Shown piece by piece: positions 11,910 through 34,422 of a stretch of DNA of 64,000 nt (positions within the stretch are counted from its first letter, which is position 1; each line of letters opens with the position of its first letter). A model generated the notes under the pieces. The model worked only from the letters and a program-made list of their open reading frames with translations. It was not told the DNA's origin and did no database searches. A program made the translations under genes and the position numbers. The stretch is from Dictyostelium discoideum (lineage: Eukaryota), in assembly GCA_000004695.1 (NCBI GenBank), contig CM000151.3, forward strand, positions 1,888,001 to 1,952,000, given 5' to 3'.

Positions 11910-12961
11910 CTATTTTTTATTTATTGTTTTATTTTTTAGAGATTTTTTTTTTAATTTTTGACATTCTTGGATTAAATCTAATTGATAATTTGCAATTTCT
12001 TCAACTTTGTCTTTAATTAAATTTTGTTTTGAAGTAATTGATTTAAATTGATCTTTGATAGGAGATAAATCAAAATCAATTTTTAAATTTGCTTCCAACT
12101 TTTTGAATTCAAGAACCTTCTCTTTTAATTCATGATATATTAATTTTGTTGTTTCATCAGTTACTTGGGAGATTAGTTCTATATTTTCCATATAATAGGA
12201 AAGAAGAGATTTTAAAGTTTTCAATTTTTTATCTCTTGCTACTGATTGCTTGTAAAATGAAATAAAAGCACCAACAAGGCAACCAAATGTTAAAAGTACT
12301 GGAGCACAAATAGGCGCAACAACTGATAGTGAAGTGGCTCCTACAGCGATCAGAGACGTGACACCAACAGCTTCAGTAGCTCCAATCGCAGTTACACTAC
12401 CAATTCCTAAAAATCCTGATATTACCCCAAACAAAGATGAGAACTTGGTAAGAAATTGAGACTTTTCTGCTTTATCAATTCCTTGAAATAGTTTTTTGGA
12501 GTTTTCAAAAAAAACATCGATTTTCTTTTTTAATTCTTCATCATTAACATTTTTTTCAGTAAATTTATTTGTTAACCCATCTATATTTTTCAATAAGGGG
12601 TCGATAAGTTTATCAATCATTGAACTTATCTCTTTTATTTTCTCTTGGTCATTTGATTGAATTTCTTTTTTATTCTCCAAAGTTAGTCTTTCAATTGTAC
12701 TAATTTGAGATTCTAATACAATTATTTCCACATCAATTATATTAACCCTTGTACTAAAGCTTGTTAATAATTCATTTAATAAACTATTGTTTATTGACAT
12801 TTCGATCATTAATTTTTTTAAAACCAATTTTTCTTTATCATTTTGTTGAGTTAACATTGTTTTGATTTTATCCATTGAATCAAATGCGATTTGAAAAGCT
12901 TCTCCATTACTTTTTGTTTTGGGATCTGCTTTTTTAATAATTGTTAAAGAATTATTATTTT

Positions 12962-21662: not shown

Positions 21663-22301
21663 TTATTCCCAATTTTTAAAAATTAATGATTTATAATTAT
21701 CATTATTTTTTAAATTTAAAAGGTTTATATTATTTTCACCATTTTCAAATTCTAATAAAATCTCTTTAAATACATTTACACTACCAATTTGTTTGAAATT
21801 CATTGATTTAAACATTTGGATTGATGGTTGGTTTGATTCACCAATTTTGACGATATATTTTTTAGTAATTGTTGATAGGTGTTCGATACCGTAACCCATG
21901 ATAATTGAAATGGCTTCCCTGGCAAGCCCTTTTCTTCTTGAGGTTGGTTCTGCTATCATAACTTCTAACTCTGCAGTACCCTCATCTTCATATTGGTTGA
22001 AAAAGATATTAACATCACCAATCATTGATTTTATATCATTTTCATTGGAATATCCATTTGAGTCTTTTTCATTCTCCAATAATAAATCTTTATCTAATAT
22101 AATAAATGTAATTTTATGGTCATCTTTAAACCAACTTTCTTGATTTTCAAATTCTTCTTCAATTGTTAATTCTTCCGATGCTGTTTGTTCCCTAATCTCT
22201 TCACTTTGCATCCATTTCCAATATTTTTCAACATGTTTTTTTTTATATGGTACTAATATTACTTTTTTACCAATTATAATTGTATTTGAATTAATTTTCA
22301 T
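21663..22301 (-). CDS. N-acetyltransferase 9 (NAT9)-like GNAT acetyltransferase, 212 aa
   Basis: IIIGKKVILVPYKKKHVEKYWKWMQSEEIREQTASEELTIEEEF, DVNIFF, ELEVMIAEPTSRRKGLAREAI, IGESNQPSIQMFKSMNFKQ align along the whole length with human NAT9 ([45 protein letters not shown]...IEVMIAEPSCRGKGLGTEAV...IGQGNEPSIRMFQKLHFEQ). Confidence 0.85.
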   Translation of the reverse strand: MKINSNTIIIGKKVILVPYKKKHVEKYWKWMQSEEIREQTASEELTIEEEFENQESWFKDDHKITFIILDKDLLLENEKDSNGYSNENDIKSMIGDVNIFFNQYEDEGTAELEVMIAEPTSRRKGLAREAISIIMGYGIEHLSTITKKYIVKIGESNQPSIQMFKSMNFKQIGSVNVFKEILLEFENGENNINLLNLKNNDNYKSLIFKNWE

Positions 22302-22315
22302 TTTTTAATAATCCA

Positions 22316-22355
<40 letters not shown>

Positions 22356-22510
22356 AATTTTATTTTTTTTTTATTTTTGTTTTAATTTTTGAGGAAAATT
22401 AACGAACGAAAAAAATGAAAAATAAAAAATAAGATATTTTCACACTTTTTTTTTTTTTCACTTTTTCATTAAGATAATTTATTTATAGAATATATATATT
22501 TTTTAATAAA

Positions 22511-23234
22511 ATGTCAGATAGTAGTGATGATGAAATAACTTTATCAAAAGAATCATTAAGTGCATTACAAGATTTTTATAAATCAAGAGAAGTTGAACAA
22601 CAAGATAAATTTGAAATTAGTGAAGATTGGCAATTATCACAATTTTGGTATGAAGAAGAAACTTCAAAATTCGTTGCAAATGTAATTGAACAAGAAACTA
22701 TTGGTGGTAATGTCGTAGTTTGTTTATCAACTCCTTCAATTTATAAAGTTTTACATGTATGATATCATATATTATAAAATAAAAACAAAACATATGTTAC
22801 AAAATTATTAATACATTTATAAAAAAAAAAAAAAAAATAATTAGAAAAATAATAATTTATTATTAAATAATAATTTATTTGAATATGATAAAAGATTTGA
22901 TGTATATGGTGAAAAATTCCATTTTTATGATTATAATAATCCAGAAGATGGTATTTCAGAACAATTAAAAGGAAATGTTGATTATATTTGTTTAGATCCA
23001 CCATTTTTAAGTGAAGAATGTATTGAAAAGGTTGCAAAAACAATTGCATTATTAAGAAAACCAACAACTCGTTTATTATTATTAACTGGTCGTATTCAAT
23101 GGAATAATATTCAAAAATATTTACCAGAAATGATGATTTGTGAATTTGAACCAAAACATCCAAGATTACAAAATGATTTCTTTTGTTGTTCAAATTATCA
23201 TTCAAAATTACTTGGTTTAGAAAATAAAAAATAA
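22511..23234 (+). CDS. EEF1A lysine methyltransferase 1 (N6AMT2/EFM5 family), about 212 aa. Exons: join(22511..22756, 22845..23234)
   Basis: ALQDFY, DWQLSQFWYEEET, CLSTPSIY in exon 1. LFEYDKRFDVYGEKFHFYDYNNP, the SAM-MTase motif CLDPPFLSEECIEK and ILLLTG in exon 2. These match human EEF1AKMT1 (NWQLSQFWY...IFEYDKRFAMYGEEFIFYDYNNP...ADPPYLSEECL). The 88-bp intron runs GTATGA...AG. The antisense ORF 22765..23205 is spurious. Confidence 0.8.
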
Positions 23235-23543
23235 AAAAAAAAAAAATAAAAACATATAGTATAATAAATTCTGATTTTCTTTATTTTTATTTTTATTTTT
23301 TAATCATTTTATCTTAAACTATTATTATCATTAAAAGAATGAACATCTTGATTATTACTAATAACTGATGGTGCTTCATTGAAAACACCAAATCAAATAC
23401 AATACCAACCAAGTTGAAAAATCAACTTCAATCAATAAAATTATAAAATAAATAAAATTAATTTTGAATAAACAATAAAAATATTTTATTTAGTTTTAAA
23501 TTCAATTATAATTGAATTTTTATTTTTTTTTTTTTTTATTTTT

Positions 23544-24632
23544 TTAATAAAGATTTGGATCTAAAATAGTTTCATATGGAACAAATAATGAATCAATACC
23601 ATTAGTTTCAATAAATGGAGAATCTTTGTGAATGTATCTTGGTGTCATTAGTGCCCAATCACGATTACCACAAATAATTTCATGTAATTGTTCAACTAAG
23701 TAAATAACACCATTCATTTCTTCTTCACTTATATGGCTAAGTGATTTGATTAACAATTTTTCATCATTTTGGATATCAAAAATGCATTGTTTTGCTTCTG
23801 CTATTAATTCAGAATAAACTTTTTCAAATGGTAAATTCAATTTCTTTTGGAGGATGTAAAGACAATTTTCACCAGCACAATCATGATTTAGTTCCTTTGC
23901 ATATGAAACACAATCATTAAAAATAATGATTTGTCTTGATGCTGATCTCACCATTCTATTCCAAATTGGATTTAACCAAAATGATCCATGGACATTAGTT
24001 CTAACAGCAACACTATTAACACCCACGACAAAGAATAATCCAATATTAATGGTTCTAATAAATTGATATACTTCAATTGGAACTGAATCATGATTATTTC
24101 CTTTTGATTTTTTCAATGGAATAATTGAAAAGAACCATTCTCTTAAATAATGAATAAAGATATTGAATGATTCAATTCTATGAATTGTTGGATTTAATAA
24201 TCTTTTTCTTAATATTAAAGAGTATTTATCTAATGGAGTCAAGTCATTATATTCAATATTTGAAATATATGAACTATCTTTACCAAAGATTAATATATCT
24301 TCATACTTTTTAACACAATACTGTTGTTTTTCATCAGTCATATGGTCACGTTCAAGAAAGTCATCCAAAACGAATATCCACAACATAATACTGGCGGCAA
24401 CCATACATTGTTCATAATCATACTTTGGATAGAACCATGTTACACAATTTAGAACTCCATTGGCATAAGCAAAATGTTTTTCATTTGAAGCTTCAAATAT
24501 ACCACAACTGACTCCTTCATTATAGGTATCTTTGATATGTTTATAATTTTTATTTATTGGATAAGACCATTCACTTGGGAAATAAAATTTTTTTAAGCTA
24601 TATAACGGTTTTTCAAGATTAATAGTTTCCAT
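23544..24632 (-). CDS. Class I terpene synthase (microbial-type TPS), 362 aa, single exon
   Basis: All three signature motifs are present: the aspartate-rich VLDDFLE (DDxxD/E), the NSE/DTE triad NDCVSYAKE (NDxxSxxxE), and the C-terminal WxxxxxRY motif (WALMTPRYI). The size is typical of dictyostelid TPS genes. Confidence 0.9.
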   Translation of the reverse strand: METINLEKPLYSLKKFYFPSEWSYPINKNYKHIKDTYNEGVSCGIFEASNEKHFAYANGVLNCVTWFYPKYDYEQCMVAASIMLWIFVLDDFLERDHMTDEKQQYCVKKYEDILIFGKDSSYISNIEYNDLTPLDKYSLILRKRLLNPTIHRIESFNIFIHYLREWFFSIIPLKKSKGNNHDSVPIEVYQFIRTINIGLFFVVGVNSVAVRTNVHGSFWLNPIWNRMVRSASRQIIIFNDCVSYAKELNHDCAGENCLYILQKKLNLPFEKVYSELIAEAKQCIFDIQNDEKLLIKSLSHISEEEMNGVIYLVEQLHEIICGNRDWALMTPRYIHKDSPFIETNGIDSLFVPYETILDPNLY

Positions 24633-24961
24633 TTTTTGATTTTTAATTTGAAATGATTTTTTTTTTTTGTTAAAATTTATGTTTAAATATTTTTTTTTTT
24701 GTGGAATAATAATAATTTTTTTTTTTGCCTTTACTTGAATAGATTAATTATTATTTATTATTTTTTTGATTTTTGTGTGTTAATAATTGATTAAATTTTT
24801 TGTGGTTAAAAAAAACCGTTTTGGGGCTATTTTTAGAATTATTATATCAAATTTCCTTATTCCAACAAATGGTAATAAAGAATATAATTACAATAATAAG
24901 TGGATAAATACTAAATAAATGCATTTAATTTTTTTTTAACCTTTTTTTAACCTTTTTTTAA

Positions 24962-25019
<58 letters not shown>

Positions 25020-25136
25020 CCACTTTTTTTTTAATATAAATTTGCAAATCATTTTTTATTCACTTAAAATTTTTTTTTTTTTTTTTTTTTTATTTTTTTT
25101 ATTTTTTTAATTTTTTTTAATTGGATAAAAAATTAA

Positions 25137-25832
25137 AAAATATTAGTAAATTATTTTCTAATAATTAATTTTGATTTGAATTCTAATGGGCATAATGTTT
25201 TTGTTAAATAACCATTTTCATCATTTAATTGGGTGGTGGTTCTTTCAAATTTAAATGTTTTATATAATTTAGTTGATACCAAAAACATTATTGAATCAGC
25301 GACATTGGCACCAGGACATTGACGTAAACCAGATGAAAAAGCGCATTGACCAATATTTGATTCATCTTTTGATAAAAAGCGATCAGGATTGAAGATGTTA
25401 GGTTCACTGCTTTCAATATTACTTCTATTACATCCATATAAATTTGGAATTACTTGAGTATTTTTTGGAATAAATATATCATCAATAACAATATCATCAG
25501 TACATATATGTGGTAATGCAAATGGTGCTGCTATATATATATATATTGATTTTTTGAAAATATTTTCAGTAATTATTTCAATAAATATATTATGTATAAT
25601 AAATTATAATAATGTATAATAAATATTTACGTGGTGAAATTCTTAAAGTTTCTTTAATAAATGAATTTAAATATGGGAATTGTAATTTATCCTTATGTAA
25701 TGGATGGTTTGGTGTGTTTATTTCAAAAAATAATTTCTCTTGAATATTTGGATAATTTGTTAAATATAATAACAACCAATCCATAGTTGTACTTGTTGTA
25801 ACTTTAAAAAAAAAATTAGAATAGTCAATTTT

Positions 25833-25879
<47 letters not shown>

Positions 25880-26379
25880 AAAATATAATATTATATTTAC
25901 CTGTAACAATAATATTAAAACTTAAATATGAAGATCAGTTATTTTAATTAAATTTGATGTATCCTTTCGAATTTCACTAATGAAATATTCTAAAAAACAT
26001 TTTGGTTCACTAATATTTAATAAAAAAAAATAAAATAAAATTTAGTTTTTTATTTAAATATATACTAAATGTTAAATATATATACATACATTCCATCATC
26101 ATCATCATCAATAATATTTTTTAAAATATTATCAATTAATGGTTGAAAGAAATTTAAACAATTATTATACTCTTTTTCAATTTCTTTATAATTATTAAAT
26201 GGTTTTAAAATTGGGATAAAATCTGCTGGTTGTTTTGCTAAATATTCAAATAATTTATTATAGCTTTGGATAAATGAATAAAATTATTTTGATAATAAAT
26301 TATCATCATATTCAAATGATACACCAAATAGAAATCTATATAAAATATTTAATAAAATTCTTTTAAAAATTGGACCCAT

Positions 26380-26429
<50 letters not shown>

Positions 26430-26531
26430 AAACCTTAAGTATTGTAAATAAAATCATGATTATATTTTGACTAATTGGTTTCACCTATTTTAAAAGATGA
26501 TTAAATCAAAATAAAATAAACACTTTCACTG

Positions 26532-26575
<44 letters not shown>

Positions 26576-26835
26576 ATATCTATTTTTAAAATTAACATTT
26601 TTGTTAACCACTTAAAATTAATAACTATTTTTTCAATATTGTTGGATCTAATATATTTGTTATAATATAATCTATACTTACATTTATTATAACATAATGA
26701 GTTTTTATTTTTATCTTAAAAAGGCTTAAATATTAAAACAAATTCTTTTGAACAAAAATACAACTTGTTTTAAAGATACATTAACATGCATTTGGTGTAT
26801 AAAAAAAATTATAAATTATAATCCAAACATAAAAA
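25137..26835. repeat. Segmental duplication copy A (about 1.7 kb), about 95% identical to copy B but with an ~840-bp internal deletion removing P450 exons 1-3
   Basis: Long identical stretches align by eye, e.g. 25137-25560 with 27928-28345, 26101-26395 with 28880-29172, and 26421-26530 with 30061-30170. Confidence 0.8.
25151..26395 (-). pseudogene. Cytochrome P450 pseudogene (copy A). Retains exons 4-7 only (MGPIFKRILLNILYRF...ETLRISP...FSSGLRQCPGANVA...KSKLIIRK*), lacks the N-terminal exons, and has frameshift/stop lesions in the I-helix exon
   Basis: Heme loop FSSGLRQCPGANVA and the K-helix ETLR are present. Upstream of the MGPIF exon the sequence jumps straight into the copy-B 5'-flank homologue, so the membrane anchor and PSGPLILPIIG exon are deleted. 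The exon-5 equivalent at about 25930-25990 reads ...ITDLHI* because of small deletions relative to copy B (...ITDLPYICFDIIVAGI). Confidence 0.6.
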
Positions 26836-26884
26836 CAAAAGAGATTATATTCTTTGTGTTGGGAAAAAAAAAAAGATACCCACA

Positions 26885-26926
<42 letters not shown>

Positions 26927-27099
26927 AAAAAACATTAATTATTTGAAATATAAAAAAAACACCACAACCTGTAGTGTTTGGTGTGGAAAAAATAAAAATA
27001 GAAAAAATAAAATCAATTTAAAAATTAAAAATAAACACTTTTGTTTAAATAAAATGATGATATAATATCAATGATGAAAAATAATTACCAAATGTAACT

Positions 27100-27760
27100 A
27101 GACTTCTCTTAAATATTACATCAGCTGATATTCCTTCAAACACCATGGTGTTTTACAATATAGCTTTTGGAAATGGGTTCAATTCCACCAGGTAATTCAA
27201 TTAAACAATAAAGTTATTATCATTAATAGCGGTACAATTACAATCAGTGGTTAATTTGGTACAGCAAAAAGATATGCCACTCGCAAAGATTCCAGTTTTC
27301 ATTTACTATGCGGATAGTAAGACTCCTTTCGTCCCCACCCTTACAGATACAACCGATTCATATTCATTCTTTAATCCTGCAACTATTTGATTACAGCACT
27401 TCCAACTGGTTAGGGTCATGAGGTTGAATCAAACATCAGTAATTCTAAAAACCTACACTGCTCCATCTTTTATCACCGGTGAAGAAACATGTAATGATGT
27501 ACCAAGTCTTTCAGTAGACACATATGTCATTGTTAATACTGAAGAAAATAGTCCAAATACAGGTGAACCAGTTATTGTTATGTTTCCATTCAATTCTACT
27601 CTACATTGAAATTATTGCCATTTCAACAACTCCAATAGGATCAATTACATTACTGATAGCGTGCTTAATTTTAAATTTCAAATAACCTCATCCAAATAAT
27701 GAAATAGAGTATCTGTGTGAACCCGATTTATTTCGGATTATTATTATTATTATTATTATT
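27100..27760. other. GC-richer, complex (non-low-complexity) non-coding island in the spacer between the two duplicated P450 units. Possible transposon or decayed gene relic
   Basis: Composition and complexity differ sharply from the flanking A/T homopolymer deserts. Only short ORFs are present (63 aa on the + strand at 27418..27609). It ends in the palindrome cccgatttatttcgg at about 27720. Confidence 0.3.
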
Positions 27761-27927
27761 TTTTTTTTTTGGATATCCGACACATCATTTTATCTTAGAT
27801 ATAACTTTAATAGATAATTTAAAAAAATATAAAATATCTATCTGGGGGCAAATATAGATAATTTAAAACCCTTTTATTTTAATTGTATTTTTAGCAATTT
27901 TTTTTTTTTTTTTTTTTTTTTTTAAAT

Positions 27928-28619
27928 AAAATATTAGTAAATTATTTTCTAATAATTAATTTTGATTTGAATTCAAATGGGGATAATGATCTTGTAAAAT
28001 GACCATTTTCATCATTTAATTGAGTAGTGGTTCTCTCAAATTTAAATGTTTTATATAATTTAGTTGATACCAAAAACATTATTGAATCAGCGACATTGGC
28101 ACCAGGACATTGACGTGAACCAAATGAAAAAGCGCATTGACCAATATTTAATTCATCTTTTGATAAAAAGTGATCAGGATTGAAGACGTTAGATTCACTG
28201 CTTTCAATATTACTTCTATTACATCCATATATGTTTGGAATTACTTGAGTATTTTTTGGAATAAATATATCATCAATAACAATATCATCAGTACATATAT
28301 GTGGTAATGCAAATGGTGCTGCTATATATATATGGATTTTTTAAAAAAATAAAAATTTTCAGTAATTATTTCAAAATGTATAATAAATTATAATAATGTA
28401 TTATAAATATTTACGTGGTGAAATTCTTAAAGTTTCTTTAATAATTGAATTTAAATATGGGAATTGTAATTTATCCTTATGTAATGGATGGTTTGGTGTG
28501 TTTATTTCAAAAAATAATTTCTCTTGAATATTCGGATAATTTGTTAAATATAATAACATCCAATCCATAGTTGTACTTGTTGTAACTTTAAAAAAAAATT
28601 AGAATCATAAATTTTAATT

Positions 28620-28651
<32 letters not shown>

Positions 28652-30011
28652 AAAAAAGAAAAAATAAATATTAGATTTACCTATACCTGCAACAATAATA
28701 TCGAAACATATATATGGAAGATCAGTTATTTTAATTAAATTTGATGTATCCTTTCGAATTTCACTAATGAAATATTCTAAAAAACATTTTGGTTCACTAT
28801 TATTTAATAAAAAAAAAAAAAAAAATAAAATTTAGTATTTTAATTAAACACATACTAGAATTATAACTTATACATACTTTCCATCATCATCATCATCACT
28901 AATATTTTTTAAAATATTATCAATTAATGGTTGAAAGAAATTTAAACAATTATTATACTCTTTTTCAATTTCTTTATAATTATTAAATGGTTTTAAAATT
29001 GGGATAAAATCTGCTGGTTGTTTTGCTAAATATTCAAATAATTTATTATAGCTTTGGATAAATGAATAAAATTCTTTTGATAATAAATTATCATCATATT
29101 CAAATGATACACCAAATAGAAATCTATATAAAATATTTAATAAAATTCTTTTAAAAATTGGACCCATATCCTTTTTTTTTTTTTTTTTGTGAAAAATTAA
29201 ACTAATAATCAATTATATATATATATATTTATTTATTTATTTATTTATTTTTTTCAAAAATAATAAAAACTTACAATATTATTATCTTGATTTATTTTTT
29301 TTAATAAATATTCTTCAGCTTTAAAATATTCATTATAAAATAATTCTTCCATTTGACGAGATTTTGATTTAGTAATTGAACTACTTAAAATATCTTTTAA
29401 TTTTCTCCAATGAGAACCATTACCAAATCTAATTTATATATATTTAATTAATTAATAATTTTTTTTAATACTAAATATTTATTTTTAAAGTTATATACTT
29501 ACATAATACCTTGATATTTTCCCATGTAATAAAAAGATGGTAAATGAAATCTTTGTGAAAAAAAGGTTGGATTGTCACGAAATGATTTTTGTAAAAAATT
29601 GATATCATTAATTACAATTGTATCAATTGAACCCATTTTCAATGAAAATACTTTTCCGTATTTATCTGATAATTGTTTGAATGATAAGTGAGGATATTTT
29701 AAACTTAATTTGTAAAGGCTACCAATAATAGGTAATATTAATGGACCACTTGGAAATTTACATTTTAATTTATTTTCTCCAACTAATAATGATGAAGGTA
29801 CTGCTCTATTAAAAAACTTTTTAAATTAAAAATTTTATTAATATTATTTTTTATTTAAAAATTTTATTAATATTATATTATATTATATTAATGCTTACTT
29901 TTATATTTATTAAATATATATATATAAATAATCCTAAAATAATTCCTAATATCATTTTTTAATATTAATTAAATTAAGTTTTAAAAATTTAATTATTAAA
30001 ATTTTATTAGT

Positions 30012-30064
<53 letters not shown>

Positions 30065-30163
30065 AAACCTTCAGTATTGTAAATAAAATCATTATTATAT
30101 TTTGACTAATTGGTTTTACCTATTTTAAAAGATGATTAAATCAAAATAAAATACACACTTTCC

Positions 30164-30215
<52 letters not shown>

Positions 30216-30500
30216 TGTTAAATTTAACATTTTTGCCACTTCAAATAATTATTTTTTGAATATAAATATTAATATATTTGATTGATTATAACATCTATAC
30301 TTACATTTATTATCACATAATCATTATTTGAGTTTTTATTTTTATCTTAAAATATTATAACCTTTTAAGATAAAATTTCTTTACAACCAATATCATCATT
30401 ACAAAAAAACAACTTGTTTTAAAAGATATATTTAAATAAATGTTTAGTGTATTAAAAACTATAGGCCAAATAAAAAAAGGTTATATTTTTAAAACTGTAA
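27928..30500. repeat. Segmental duplication copy B (about 2.55 kb) containing the intact P450 gene plus its 5' flank
   Basis: See copy A. Confidence 0.8.
27942..29955 (-). CDS. Cytochrome P450 monooxygenase (intact copy), about 480 aa, 7 exons. Exons: complement join(29899..29955, 29503..29816, 29275..29428, 28878..29170, 28681..28796, 28415..28585, 27942..28321)
   Basis: Exon 1 is the membrane anchor MILGIILGLFIYIYLINIK|GTAAGC. Exon 2 has FPSGPLILPIIGSLYKL...MGKYQGI. Exon 3 has FGNGSHWRKLKDIL. Exon 4 has DMGPIFKRILLN...DDDDDG. Exon 5 has the I-helix ...FDIIVAGI. Exon 6 has VTTSTTMDWLLLYLTNYPNIQEKL...PYLNSFIKETLRISP (K-helix ExxR). Exon 7 has the heme loop FSFGSRQCPGANVA and ends KSKLIIRK*. 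Every junction is GT...AG and the exon lengths (57, 314, 154, 293, 116, 171, 380 nt) are phase-consistent. Confidence 0.8.
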
Positions 30501-30632
30501 GCCAAACATGAAAAAAAAAAAAAAAAATAATAATAAAAATAAAAATAAATCTATTTTTAAGTTCAAAAAAAAAAAAATAAAAAAAAAAATTTCTTTTTGT
30601 GTTAGATGAAAAAAAAGAAAAAAAAAAAAGGG

Positions 30633-30703
30633 AAAAATAAAAATAAAAATAAAAATAAAAATAAAAATAAAAATAAAAATAAAAATAAAAATAAAAATAA
30701 AAA
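30633..30703. repeat. (AAAATA)n hexamer microsatellite of about 12 units, about 90 bp upstream of the IFI6-like gene ATG
   Basis: Read directly. It is the source of the spurious poly-Phe/Ile ORF 30489..30737. Confidence 0.9.
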
Positions 30704-30795
30704 CAACTAACACTGTAAAATTAAAAATTGAATTCAATAGGTTTTTTTTTTTTTTTTTTTTTTCCCAATCCTACCCAAAAAATAAAATACACAAA

Positions 30796-31311
30796 ATGGC
30801 TGACCCAGAAAATAATAATAACTATAATGTTGATAGTGGATCTAATATCAATGATAAGCACCAAGATCCAATTGAACAAAAAGATAGTTTCAGTAAAATT
30901 TTAAAAGAAAAAAGTATTTTAATTGGAGATAAAACAGTTGAATTTGCAAAGGAACATCCATACACAACAACAGCAATTGCAATCACTGGGGTAACAACAG
31001 GTGGAGCAATTATTGCAACACCTTATATCGCAGCAGCTTTAGGTTTTGGTACTGGGGGTATCATTAAATCTACAATTGCAGCTAAAACAATGGCAACTTT
31101 AGGATCAGGTTCAAAAATCGGTGCTCTGTTACAATCAATTGGTGCTAAATCAACAATTCTTCATTTAGTTGGTGCTACTAAAATCGCTGCTATATCTGGT
31201 AGTATTTCTGCTGCTTGTGTATCTACAATTTATTATGCAAAAGATTGTTTTTCTAAAATATTAAACTATTTTAATAATAATAAAAATAATAATAAAAAAA
31301 AAGAAGAATAA
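30796..31311 (+). CDS. Interferon-alpha-inducible 6-16 family (IFI6/IFI27/ISG12-like) small Gly/Ala-rich membrane protein, 171 aa
   Basis: ITGVTTGGAIIATPYIAAALGFGTGGIIKSTIAAKTMATLGSGSKIGALLQSIGAKS parallels human IFI27 ...AMGFTAAGIASSSIAAKMMSAA...GGGVASGSLVATLQSLGA. A Kozak-like A-rich context is present. Confidence 0.65.
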   Translation: MADPENNNNYNVDSGSNINDKHQDPIEQKDSFSKILKEKSILIGDKTVEFAKEHPYTTTAIAITGVTTGGAIIATPYIAAALGFGTGGIIKSTIAAKTMATLGSGSKIGALLQSIGAKSTILHLVGATKIAAISGSISAACVSTIYYAKDCFSKILNYFNNNKNNNKKKEE

Positions 31312-31476
31312 TACCAATAATTAAACAAATGAAATGAAGAAATAGTTAAAAAGGTAACAAATTTTCACACAAGGATATCCTTTTATTAAAATCAATAAAT
31401 AAAAAAAAAAACATTAGGTTTTCTAATTAAAATTAATATATTTGTTTTACTATTGTATAGCAAATAAATTTAATAT

Positions 31477-31716
31477 TTATTTTTTAATTATAAAATCTAA
31501 AGTTTCTTTGAGTAATCTATTTCTTCTTAATGATTCATATTCATCGGGTGCAAAGTCAAAGAAATGTCTTGTTTCCTTTCCAATCTCTGTTGATACAAAT
31601 TTAAAAGTTACATCAATACGGTTTTCATTTACTGGAGCACCAACATTTGGAATATCAATATACAAATGTCCAAAAAATTGGACACCTGGGTCAGTCGAAT
31701 ATGACATTGTTGGCAT
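31477..31716 (-). pseudogene. Partial duplicate of the 3' end of the Hsp70-like domain of the upstream gene (MPTMSYSTDPGVQFFGHLYIDIPNVGAPVNENRIDVTFKFVSTEIGKETRHFFDFAPDEYESLRRNRLLKETLDFIIKK*). No vWA follows
   Basis: About 85% nucleotide identity to 32600-32840. It keeps the reading frame that the main copy has lost and lacks the 27-nt insertion present in the main copy. Confidence 0.5.
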
Positions 31717-31956
31717 GTGATGAGAAAATGGAAAATAAAATTAATTTTTGATCTCGTTTAGTTGGAAATATGGTCTTGTAAACACTTCATCAAAACCAAC
31801 CATTTGGTTTGCATGAACAATAACATCACAAACATTTTTGCAACTAGTGATTATAAATTCATACTTCAACAAAAAAAAAAATAAATAAAAAAAAAATTAA
31901 AAAAATAATTTGATATTCAATTTTATTTCATTTTTAAAGGGATATTTATTAATTTT

Positions 31957-34422
31957 TTAATTTGTAAATCTGGTAATAGAGGTTTGAACAAAGTTAACTA
32001 AAGAAGGTAATAATTTTGAGACATCTGATCCAAGGTCATGAACTACAATCTTTTTTTGAGGTGAGTCATATGACTTTCTAAAAATTTCAATCATCTTATC
32101 AGTTTGAGATGTGATTTTAATGAAATAATAGTCAATTGATTTTGAAGATAATTTTTGTAAAAGTTTTTCTGGAACCAAACCACTTGGGTCACCATCTGGA
32201 TATGAATCAACACAATTATGATATTTTTTGCCGTGGCATGGTGCATCGCCTACATGGACAACAAGTTTAGTATGAGTTGGTTTCCACGATAGGTTATTTA
32301 CTTGTAAAAAAGCACCTGTAATATCTTCTGGAGTATCACCACCACCTGTTGGAACTGCTTCATTAATTTTGGAAGCAAGATATCCCATATCCGTTGTAAA
32401 TGGTACAACCTCAAATCTATTGGAATCAGTAATATCACGATAACCTATGAAACTTGCATTCAATTCCAAACCTACATATGAGCTGGCTAATAATCCAGTT
32501 AATGAAATAATTTTTTCTTTACTTTCTTTAATCCATGAGCCCATACTACCAGTGCAATCCATCATGAGGCAAAGTTGTACCATTGGGGGTTTATTCTTTT
32601 CTTGACGTAATCTATTTCTTCTTAATGATTCTGCTTCATCGAGTGCAAAGTCGTAAGAATGTCTAATTTCCTTTCCCGATTTTACATGTAATGCACAAAC
32701 TTCTATCTCTGTTGATGCAATTTTAAAGTTACATCAATACGGTTTTCATTGACTGGTGCACCTACATTTGGAATATTAACATACAATTCACCAATAAATT
32801 GAACACCTGGGTCAGTCGTATATGACATTGTTTGCATATACGATGAGAAAATGGAAATTTCAATGGCTTTTTGATCTTGTGAAGTTGGAACATATGACCT
32901 TGTAAACACTTCATCACAACCAACCATTTGATTTGCATGAACAAAAACATCACAAACATTTTGGCAATGTGGAATATCTCTGATTTTAATTATTGATTTT
33001 CCAGTATGTGGTTTACTTGGTGTAACTACTTCTGTAATCTCTGTTGCATAACTTTTGGTTTGTTTTCTTGTTGAAATTGTATTTGGATTTAATCCAAATC
33101 TTGTTGCACCCATAACGACTGATAGACCAGCCTTATTTGGAATGATGAATTTTGCACCAGTAAATTCTAATTCACTTTTAATATGTTCTTGCAAATCTTT
33201 ATTTTCATTGAAACCGCCAATTAAAAAAATATAATCTAATTTTTTAATATCTGAATTTGATTTGATTTCACTTTTTATTGAATCGGTGATACTTTGGAAT
33301 AAAGGTTTGAAAAATGAAATAAATAAATCCTGTGGGAAAATCAATTTCTCTCTTGCTGATGAATATCTTAAACTGAAACCACTTTTTGAATTAAATTCTT
33401 GAATTTTTTTATTTAACCATTTTTCATCTTCATGAAATAATGCCATTGGAAAAAATTCTAAACTGATGATATGATTTGAATCTCTATTATAAGTTTTTTT
33501 TAAGAATCCAAATTTATCAAACAAAGATTGTAAGTGGGGCTTTTTTTTCTTTTTTCAATAACATCATCTCCAAATAACTTTTTAAGAAATAAAATAAAAT
33601 TATTATTAACATAACTTGATCCAAAATCACCACCAAATGAACGAGAAATTGATTTTAATTTTCCTCCTTCCAATTGTTCATAACAAATGATATCGGATGT
33701 TCCACCACCATTATCGATAACCATAAACTTTTAACCAACTTGAACAGAGTAACCAGTAGTTTTTTCAAAAATACATTGTAATGCACCAGCTTCTGGTTCA
33801 TATGAAAAGATGAGAGACTCTAAGAATATTTTAAATAAATTGTTAATAAATGAAAATTTGATTTTATTTAATAAATTAATTTTTACTTACCTTTATCATC
33901 TTTTGAACAAAGTCCTGCAGTGTCTGCACAACTTCTCATTACTTGTTTACTAGAGTCATCCCAAATTGCAGGGATTGTTAATACCCATTGAACTTCGGAT
34001 TCATAAACTTTTTTGGAAGATATACTATTTACCTTATTCATTGCAACAATTTTTAAATATCTTAAGGATTCAGTAATGAGTTCTTGAATTGTTGCACTAT
34101 GATTACCACAAACTGATTTAATTGGTTGGCCTCTAGTTTTTGGGTTAAATAGATGCATTTTATAAGAGGAGTAAAGCGAATGTTTTTCAGTACCTTCATC
34201 ATCATTGTTTGAAAAGTAATCTCTAGCCTCGTAACCAAATGCAACAAATTTTTTTTTTTCATCCAACACAATTTGCGTCAAAGTTTTTACATTTATTGAA
34301 CATGACCCACCCCAAGTTTCAGTGCAATAAACTGTCTCTGAAATATCTTGGGGGAAAACAAATGCAAACCCAGAACATGAAGTACCAAAATCAATTGCAA
34401 TTACAACACTTTTACCTTTCAT
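31957..34422 (-). pseudogene. HSPA12-like (Hsp70 actin-fold ATPase) gene fused to a C-terminal von Willebrand factor A (MIDAS) domain. One in-frame TAA and two single-nt homopolymer frameshifts make it a probable pseudogene. Exon 1 is 33891..34422, the intron is 33820..33890, exon 2 starts at 33819
   Basis: Exon 1 has VVIAIDFGTSCSGFAFVF, the Hsp70 phosphate-1 motif. Exon 2 has MVIDNGGGTSDI (phosphate-2), FGDDVIEKRKK, YIFLIGGFNENKDL, TRSYVPTSQDQ, TDPGVQFIGELYVNIPN, collinear with human HSPA12A. Lesion 1 is an in-frame TAA (plus-strand tta at 33731-33733) in ...YSVQVG*KFMVID. Lesion 2 is a frame change inside the A8/A6 run at about 33541-33556. Lesion 3 is a 1-nt loss in the tttt/aaa run at about 32719-32728, judged against the fragment at 31477..31716. 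If these are mentally corrected, the frame runs without stops into ORF 31957..32583 (MVQLCLMMDCTGSMGSW...), a vWA domain with the DxTxS MIDAS motif. Confidence 0.5.

Follow-up and report, generated by a model that had tools for sequence, protein, structure and literature searches.

The DdTPS3/CYP515A1 locus of Dictyostelium discoideum AX4, a putative terpene synthase/cytochrome P450 cluster that appears partly degraded relative to its homologues

A stretch of 64,000 nucleotides of D. discoideum DNA (GenBank assembly GCA_000004695.1, contig CM000151.3, positions 1,888,001 to 1,952,000; hereafter the window, with a G+C content of about 22% throughout) carries an intact cytochrome P450 (P450) gene, a decayed P450 copy, and a class I terpene synthase (TPS) gene. 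The region is the chromosome-2 DdTPS3/CYP515A2P/CYP515A1 locus of D. discoideum AX4, and the comparison with related genomes indicates that the AX4 cluster is probably a partly degraded version of a conserved P450/ependymin-like/TPS neighbourhood. The trio is already known, as DdTPS3, CYP515A2_ps, and CYP515A1 are listed as a putative cluster in Fig. 7A and the Discussion of Chen et al. (2019, eLife 8:e44352, PMC6524965), one of two further putative TPS/CYP clusters that are reported there beyond DdTPS8-CYP521A1. The finding of the genes is therefore a rediscovery, and the new points are all comparative. The overall explanation, which combines the identity of the locus, its history, and a TPS/P450 pathway, is held with moderate confidence.

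The identity of the intact genes was established by exact-sequence look-up. The TPS open reading frame (ORF) is identical residue for residue to DdTPS3 (TPS3_DICDI, Q86II4), and the seven-exon join is 100% identical at the protein level to CYP515A1 (Q86A22, 'Probable cytochrome P450 515A1'), both being placed on one AX4 contig of 8,484,197 bp. The middle element corresponds to the annotated pseudogene CYP515A2P; Supplementary file 2 of PMC6524965 lists the gene identifiers and names this copy a pseudogene. The locus is the same as the published one, with the same proteins in the same tail-to-head order of intact P450, partial P450, and TPS. A preliminary description, made from the DNA letters before any look-up, had called a class I TPS and an intact seven-exon P450 here. 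The first call is confirmed by the TPS3_DICDI match together with the domain and motifs described below, and the second was right in its coordinates and exon count, the product being a protein of 494 amino acids (aa). The numbers that it left to protein look-up are DdTPS3, CYP515A1, and, for the pseudogene, CYP515A2P, and its candidate TPS/P450 cluster agrees both with the published listing and with a linkage kept in five other genomes. It could not tell whether this was the DdTPS8/CYP521A1 locus; that identity is ruled out by the exact matches and by the published geometry, since DdTPS8 and CYP521A1 lie head-to-head on chromosome 6, 685 bp apart, whereas the genes here are on the same strand, about 3.3 kb apart, with a pseudogene in between.

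The interval between the stop codon of CYP515A1 and the ATG of DdTPS3 (24633-27941) measures 3309 bp in the window and 3253 bp in an independent D. discoideum assembly (GCA_054883475.1, L006 4748-8000), and contains the P450 pseudogene and a gene fragment only. Chen et al. place the intact CYP 3148 bp from the start of DdTPS3 (PMC6524965). Much of the length difference between assemblies at this locus lies in gaps. The Results of the same paper print 'CYP512A1' for the intact gene, while its Discussion and supplement print CYP515A1. The independent assembly is collinear with window 32000-22000 at 98.8% identity (15 mismatches and 11 gap openings) and contains the same 494-aa P450, the same TPS, and, on the remnant, only a model with a 177-aa product that starts at the Met of exon 6. 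This collinearity indicates that the structure of the locus is real, and an assembly artefact behind the shortened P450 copy is thereby essentially ruled out; the decay described for the first D. discoideum assembly thus recurs in a second one.

Judged from their domains and motifs, the family membership of DdTPS3 and CYP515A1 is unambiguous. DdTPS3 matches the Pfam family Terpene_syn_C_2 (PF19086) over aa 82-279 with 46.8 bits against a cutoff of 23.7. It carries the metal-binding motif DDFLE (aa 90-94; 24351-24365), the NSE/DTE motif NDCVSYAKE (aa 239-247; 23892-23918), and the C-terminal RY-pair motif WALMTPRY (aa 326-333; 23634-23657). The nearest solved structures are those of fungal and bacterial sesquiterpene cyclases, with the BcBOT2 presilphiperfolan-8-beta-ol synthase at the top (8h6q, E 1.5e-6). 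Recombinant DdTPS3 converts farnesyl diphosphate to sesquiterpenes and geranyl diphosphate to linalool in vitro (PMC6524965, PMC6156593). The two major sesquiterpenes had no assigned structure in 2018, and their mass spectra match those of the DpTPS5 products of D. purpureum (PMC6156593). DdTPS3 is a developmentally expressed, FPP-cyclising enzyme whose sesquiterpene products are emitted in multicellular development (PMC6524965).

CYP515A1 matches the Pfam family p450 (PF00067) with an E-value of 1e-87. Its N-terminus consists of a hydrophobic anchor (MILGIILGLFIYIYLINI...) followed by the Pro-rich hinge PSGPLILPIIG (aa 41-51), and the K-helix ETLR (aa 362-365) and the heme loop FSFGSRQCPG (aa 433-442) are in place. 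All of its exon borders are GT..AG, and its nearest solved structures are CYP2-family microsomal enzymes, with CYP2B4 at 1.5e-43.

The decayed gene CYP515A2P (copy A) was compared with CYP515A1 (copy B) by a length-filtered self-comparison of the window, the unfiltered run being swamped by poly(A)/poly(T) matches. Two blocks are shared, namely a 3' block (A 26400-25137, B 29188-27928; 93.4% over 1278 columns) and the upstream blocks of Table 1 (86.8% over 348 columns). Copies A and B lie 2.79 kb apart when measured by the former and 3.63 kb apart by the latter. The exons are 96.8-96.9% identical (929/960 positions) and the introns about 79-86%. These figures replace the single duplication unit of about 2.55 kb and the flat identity of about 95% given in the preliminary description. 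Copy A lacks the ATG and exons 1-3. It carries a nonsense codon (GAA>TAA at 26286-26284), a frameshift where exon 5 is short of 1 nt (25931/25930), and, at the donor end of exon 5, a 6-nt loss that removes the Ala-Gly of the I-helix. The two blocks of copy A abut inside a poly(A) run, while their counterparts in copy B are about 830 bp apart (B 30018-29189, with the leader, ATG, and exons 1-3), and both ends of this B segment also lie in poly(A) tracts. Since the upstream block is kept and the blocks abut in poly(A), copy A began as a full duplicate that included the promoter region, and its 5' exons disappeared afterwards through a deletion inside the gene. The frameshift of the preliminary description thus stands, and its 5'-truncated duplicate does not. 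CYP515A2P is a dead tandem paralogue of CYP515A1.

Homologue searches and locus look-ups gave five related loci, from D. cf. discoideum ACTFIY (L001), D. discoideum ACTFIW (L002), D. discoideum ACTFIR (L003), D. citrinum (L004), and D. purpureum (L005). The linkage of TPS3 and CYP515A is kept in all five, though the gene order has changed. The order in ACTFIR and ACTFIW is an Ifi-6-16 gene, a P450 (492 aa), a second P450 (492 or 482 aa), an oppositely oriented ependymin-like gene (231 aa), TPS3 (362 aa), and an N6-adenine methylase-like gene. ACTFIY has P450s of 500 and 504 aa, an ependymin-like gene with a fragment of another, and a TPS of 364 aa. D. citrinum has a single P450 (490 aa), an ependymin-like gene on the minus strand, and a TPS, and D. 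purpureum has TPS4, an ependymin-like gene on the minus strand, TPS5, and a P450 (480 aa). Where two P450 copies occur, the outer flanks match: the sequence upstream of AX4 copy B corresponds to that upstream of copy 1, and the 3' flank of AX4 copy A to that of copy 2. The upstream block of CYP515A1 is continuous with the region upstream of P450 copy 1 in ACTFIW, and the ACTFIR match starts from window position 30210.

Table 1. Features of the DdTPS3/CYP515A1 locus in the window and ependymin-like genes at the related loci
Feature	Sequence	Position	Strand	Description
DdTPS3 (tps3, DDB_G0272706)	window	23544-24632	-	intronless, 362 aa, class I microbial-type terpene synthase
A-rich scar	window	24995-25068	.	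poly(A) and (GGTTAAAAAAA)3; relatives carry a ~1.18-kb segment with a whole ependymin-like gene there
CYP515A2P (DDB_G0272959)	window	25151-26383	-	what remains (exons 4-7) of the second CYP515A copy of the tandem pair
Upstream block of copy A	window	26384-26721	-	promoter/leader-like; paralogue of the CYP515A1 upstream block; ends in poly(A) at the deletion junction
Colossin-like 3'-terminal gene fragment	window	27268-27684	+	SdrD_B-repeat; in-frame stops; between the P450 copies
CYP515A1 (DDB_G0272704)	window	27942-29955	-	seven exons, 494 aa, microsomal-type P450
CYP515A1 exons 1-7	window	29955-29899, 29816-29503, 29428-29275, 29170-28878, 28796-28681, 28585-28415, 28321-27942	-	
Upstream block of CYP515A1	window	30019-30352	-	duplicated ahead of copy A
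Ifi-6-16-family ORF	window	30796-31311	+	171 aa; immediately upstream of CYP515A1, divergent; synteny kept in D. discoideum-complex loci
Ependymin-like gene and fragment	L001	16005-16784, 17597-17896		PF25544
Ependymin-like gene	L002	15122-15906		PF25544
Ependymin-like gene	L003	8493-9276	-	PF25544
Ependymin-like gene	L004	8842-9448		PF25544
Ependymin-like gene	L005	7895-8623		PF25544

Exon projection gave uninterrupted ORFs for both ACTFIR copies and for ACTFIY copy 1. In several copies the projected AX4 exon borders put the sequence out of frame where exon 4 ends in a variable poly-Asp stretch, and a GGAAG|GTATGG donor restores the frame in ACTFIW copy 1 and in ACTFIR copies 1 and 2. For ACTFIY copy 2 and ACTFIW copy 2, in which this donor anchor was not found, the full length was taken from the annotated models of the depositors (504 and 482 aa). 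Exon 1 of ACTFIW copy 2 (12720-12780) is 4 nt shorter than that of ACTFIR copy 2 (…TTAATATAAAAG against …TTAATAAATATAAAAG), which shifts the frame and leads to the 482-aa rather than the 492-aa model; the second copy may be decaying independently in this lineage, or the AT-rich run may have been misread in sequencing. The annotated protein of ACTFIY copy 2 (P0009, 13248-15308) has a 12-residue insertion that repeats the start of the I-helix (DIIVAGTDKIDLDIIVAGTDTT), which probably reflects a gene model with a retained intron or wrong splicing, or else a short tandem duplication.

A gene of the family Ependymin_amoebozoa (PF25544) stands head-to-head with the TPS3/TPS5 orthologue in each of the five related genomes. 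No ependymin-like sequence was found in the whole window, and the AX4-like assembly L006 also lacks it. The flanks of the A-rich scar align with ACTFIR on both sides (window 26407-25069 with L003 6801-8171, and window 24994-24709 with L003 9353-9624), and the scar replaces about 1.18 kb of L003 (8172-9352) including the entire ependymin-like gene, the intergenic sequence on the TPS side being kept. The D. purpureum protein is 33% identical to that of the D. discoideum complex, and its orthology is uncertain. Proteins related to ependymin adopt a LolA-like fold that contains a hydrophobic pocket (PMC6363788). Because of this fold, the ependymin-like protein could be a terpenoid-binding third member of the cluster. 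A more far-reaching proposal, which we consider doubtful, is that the natural cluster would comprise a TPS3-type synthase, one or two CYP515A enzymes whose I-helix is canonical, and, as a secreted carrier or presenter of the terpenoid, the ependymin-like protein, and that the AX4/NC4-type lineage would be without the carrier gene and one P450 copy, the other copy having lost its I-helix acid. If this three-component reading were true, wild relatives would make, and perhaps export, an oxidised DdTPS3-derived terpenoid that is out of reach of the standard laboratory strain, and the chemistry of AX4 would under-report the pathway.

Between its P450 copies AX4 contains roughly 0.8-0.9 kb that the relatives do not have (extra segment 26870-27930), and the colossin-like fragment lies in it. 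The three genes are all on the minus strand, as the preliminary description had it, but this plus-strand pseudogene fragment between the P450 copies means that they are not strictly contiguous. The fragment aligns with the last ~150 residues (aa 538-686) of a 687-aa colossin-like protein, P0060, at 64.7% identity (tblastn, E 3e-45), and P0060 matches the Pfam family SdrD_B at 2e-41. An exhaustive HMMER search with the 72-codon open stretch of the fragment found two relatives and led to the colossin-like assignment. No match to it was found in L001-L005; it is present in the AX4-like L006, and a 91-aa gene model (P0059) lies on it in public collections. The GC-richer stretch 26870-27760 had been considered as a relic of the ependymin-like gene. 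This was rejected, as tblastx and BLASTP gave only noise, Pfam and a word-indexed protein search gave nothing, and HMMER pointed to the colossin-like protein. The colossin-like fragment and the ependymin-like gene of the relatives both go unmentioned in PMC6524965.

The comparison indicates a history that starts, in the D. discoideum complex, from two P450 genes followed by an ependymin-like gene in the opposite orientation and a TPS gene in the same orientation as the P450s. In the AX4 lineage, the second P450 lost exons 1-3 by a deletion with a poly(A) tract at either end and acquired a frameshift and a nonsense codon, the whole ependymin-like gene was deleted with the A-rich scar left behind, a colossin-like gene fragment of about 0.4 kb was gained between the P450 copies, and the surviving CYP515A1 lost the conserved acid of its I-helix. 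The junctions of both AX4-specific deletions fall in homopolymer runs, so the mechanism may have been slippage at A-tracts or recombination between them. As to function, CYP515A1 may be a P450 anchored in the endoplasmic reticulum and dependent on the P450 reductase RedB, and, much as CYP521A1 converts the DdTPS8 product, may oxidise part of the DdTPS3 sesquiterpene pool to a terpenoid of lower volatility or different activity. The chances for and against a functional coupling of DdTPS3 and CYP515A1 in AX4 seem about equal. A coupling is rated higher for the ancestral locus, because the linkage is conserved through rearrangement.

Several observations weigh against such a history and pathway. 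The I-helix of CYP515A1 reads AGIVTT (aa 309-314), in which the Thr is kept and Val replaces the acid of the acid-alcohol pair that serves O2 activation. The change from Asp is a single A>T in a codon split by intron 5 (exon 5/6 junction, 28681-28696 / 28584-28585). AGTDTT is found in both copies of the ACTFIR/ACTFIW lineage, as seen in protein P0011 and in reconstructions of the two ACTFIR copies, and AGSDTT in the D. purpureum P450, the ancestral form being AG[ST]DTT. Val at this position is shared with ACTFIY copy 1, with one D. citrinum protein, and with one D. dimigraforme protein, and since these D. cf. discoideum, D. citrinum, and D. dimigraforme copies are full length, it is not simply a lesion and may be a tolerated substitution. 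The I-helix acid is typical of P450s and not strictly defining, with natural exceptions. The variant lowers the confidence in an ordinary monooxygenase turnover, not in the membership of the P450 family. In addition, the PERF motif of AX4 CYP515A1 is PDHF (aa 417-420; 28061-28072), with His in place of the Arg of the E-R-R triad. Every other aligned CYP515A sequence, the AX4 pseudogene included, has PDRF, so that PDHF is unique to AX4 CYP515A1; His variants of this Arg are known in functional P450s.

In CYP515A exons 4-7, the non-synonymous to synonymous codon differences between lineages are 34:14 and 31:13, or about 2.4 per synonymous difference. For TPS3, 22 synonymous and 16 non-synonymous differences were counted between AX4 and ACTFIR, and 24:13 in a second comparison, all these figures being raw counts and not model-based dN/dS. 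TPS3 is thus clearly constrained, under purifying selection, and relaxed constraint fits the fast evolution of CYP515A as well as diversifying selection does. On the historical side, ACTFIR and ACTFIW, although called 'D. discoideum', differ from AX4 in 5-10% of the DNA across the locus and in about 5-13% over the whole 10 kb (22000-32000), flanking genes included, while ACTFIT differs from AX4 by 0.15%. ACTFIR and ACTFIW may therefore be cryptic species, and the term 'lineage-specific' and the dating of the AX4 events are accordingly coarse. The DdTPS3 products are present unmodified in the volatile bouquet of AX4, from which the DdTPS8 product is absent (PMC6524965), and any conversion by a P450 in AX4 would therefore be at most partial. 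The published coexpression screen correlated CYPs with DdTPS8 only (PMC6524965). A literature search for functional work on DdTPS3/CYP515A1 after 2019, or for an assay of the P450 converting the TPS product, found none, subscription papers being outside this search. The decay of the AX4 locus also weighs against a tight coupling.

Much of this evidence would also suit a relic cluster, in which the genes are linked by descent while the AX4 P450 no longer acts on the DdTPS3 products. DdTPS3 alone would then be a volatile sesquiterpene/linalool synthase, and CYP515A1 would be decaying or acting on another substrate. The emission of unmodified products, the derived AGIVTT and PDHF motifs, the non-synonymous excess in the CYP515A exons beside a constrained TPS3, and the loss of two other ancestral members of the locus all point in this direction. 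However, CYP515A1 retains an uninterrupted ORF in which every splice site of the seven exons, the heme-Cys loop, and the ExxR motif are preserved, the same Val is found in the full-length copies of the three other species, and a partial conversion of the TPS product is compatible with the detection of its precursor. A relic is the main rival reading, although a rather unlikely one. That the TPS and the P450s are accidental neighbours and were never a pathway is very improbable. With 54 CYP loci in D. discoideum some chance neighbours are expected, but only about 0.16 adjacencies within two genes of nine TPS genes by a rough estimate for the ~12,500 genes of D. discoideum, whereas a CYP neighbour is found for three of the nine characterised genes (DdTPS1-9), one of them functionally proven. 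Moreover, the orthologous TPS-CYP515A linkage survives in D. citrinum and D. purpureum despite the rearranged order.

A further question is whether the tandem duplication occurred recently in the AX4 genome and was followed by the quick death of one copy. The exons of the two AX4 copies do resemble each other more closely (96.9% in exons 4-7) than they resemble the copies of the other genomes (94.3-95.7%). The same pattern recurs elsewhere: over exons 4-7 the paralogues are 97.2% identical in ACTFIW and 98.3% in ACTFIR, which are about 94.5-95.7% identical to AX4, and the identities between lineages are about 94-95.7% overall. The margin in ACTFIY is negligible, with 95.4% within the genome against up to 95.4% to ACTFIW copy 2. 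This argues for concerted evolution rather than a young duplication, and the modest identities of the AX4 introns (about 86%) and upstream blocks also count against a recent event. High exon with much lower intron similarity fits concerted evolution or constraint, not youth. In three further genomes the site is occupied by two P450 copies annotated as full length, between corresponding outer flanks, which places the tandem duplication before the split of these lineages, and a recent duplication in AX4 is accordingly hard to credit. What appears specific to the AX4-type lineage is only the pseudogenisation of the second copy. The recent birth-and-death of the preliminary description is thus upheld for the death, which is specific to the AX4 lineage, and not for the birth, as ACTFIR, ACTFIW, and ACTFIY share the two copies.

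The proposed processing of a TPS product by the neighbouring P450 has its functional precedent in DdTPS8-CYP521A1 (discoidol to discodiene), in which a dictyostelid class I sesquiterpene synthase likewise adjoins a microsomal-type P450. For that pair, coexpression (r = 0.994) and catalysis have been proven, whereas DdTPS3-CYP515A1 is only putative (PMC6524965). The two also differ in the volatile bouquet, which contains the DdTPS3 products but not that of DdTPS8. DpTPS5-CYP515A1_Dp of D. purpureum is regarded as an orthologous pair in the Discussion of PMC6524965. It shares with the AX4 locus a TPS orthologue of 77% aa identity, a neighbour of the CYP515A subfamily, and a head-to-head ependymin-like gene, and DpTPS5 and DdTPS3 give the same mass spectra for the two major products. 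The D. purpureum cluster differs in having the P450 downstream of the TPS, a duplicated TPS (TPS4/TPS5) instead of a duplicated P450, and the I-helix AGSDTT. Plant and fungal TPS/P450 clusters similarly pair a scaffold-forming class I TPS with tailoring P450s and show tandem duplication and loss of the tailoring gene. Unlike them, the DdTPS3 locus is tiny, with two or three enzyme genes and no evident transporter or regulator, and its function as a cluster is putative.

With one dictyostelid TPS-P450 pair functionally solved, DdTPS3/CYP515A1, with its orthologous D. purpureum cluster, is the obvious next candidate. A negative result from the AX4 genes would not settle the natural role of the cluster, because one P450 copy is dead, the I-helix of the survivor is non-canonical, and the ependymin-like neighbour is missing. 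The comparative picture therefore bears on the choice of alleles, favouring genes of wild isolates (ACTFIR/ACTFIW type) or of D. purpureum beside those of AX4. A (TTTTTA)n microsatellite and A/T homopolymer runs of 40-55 nt flank the genes of the locus, at 30640-30705, 30014-30067, 30166-30215, 26532-26579, and 24964-25020.

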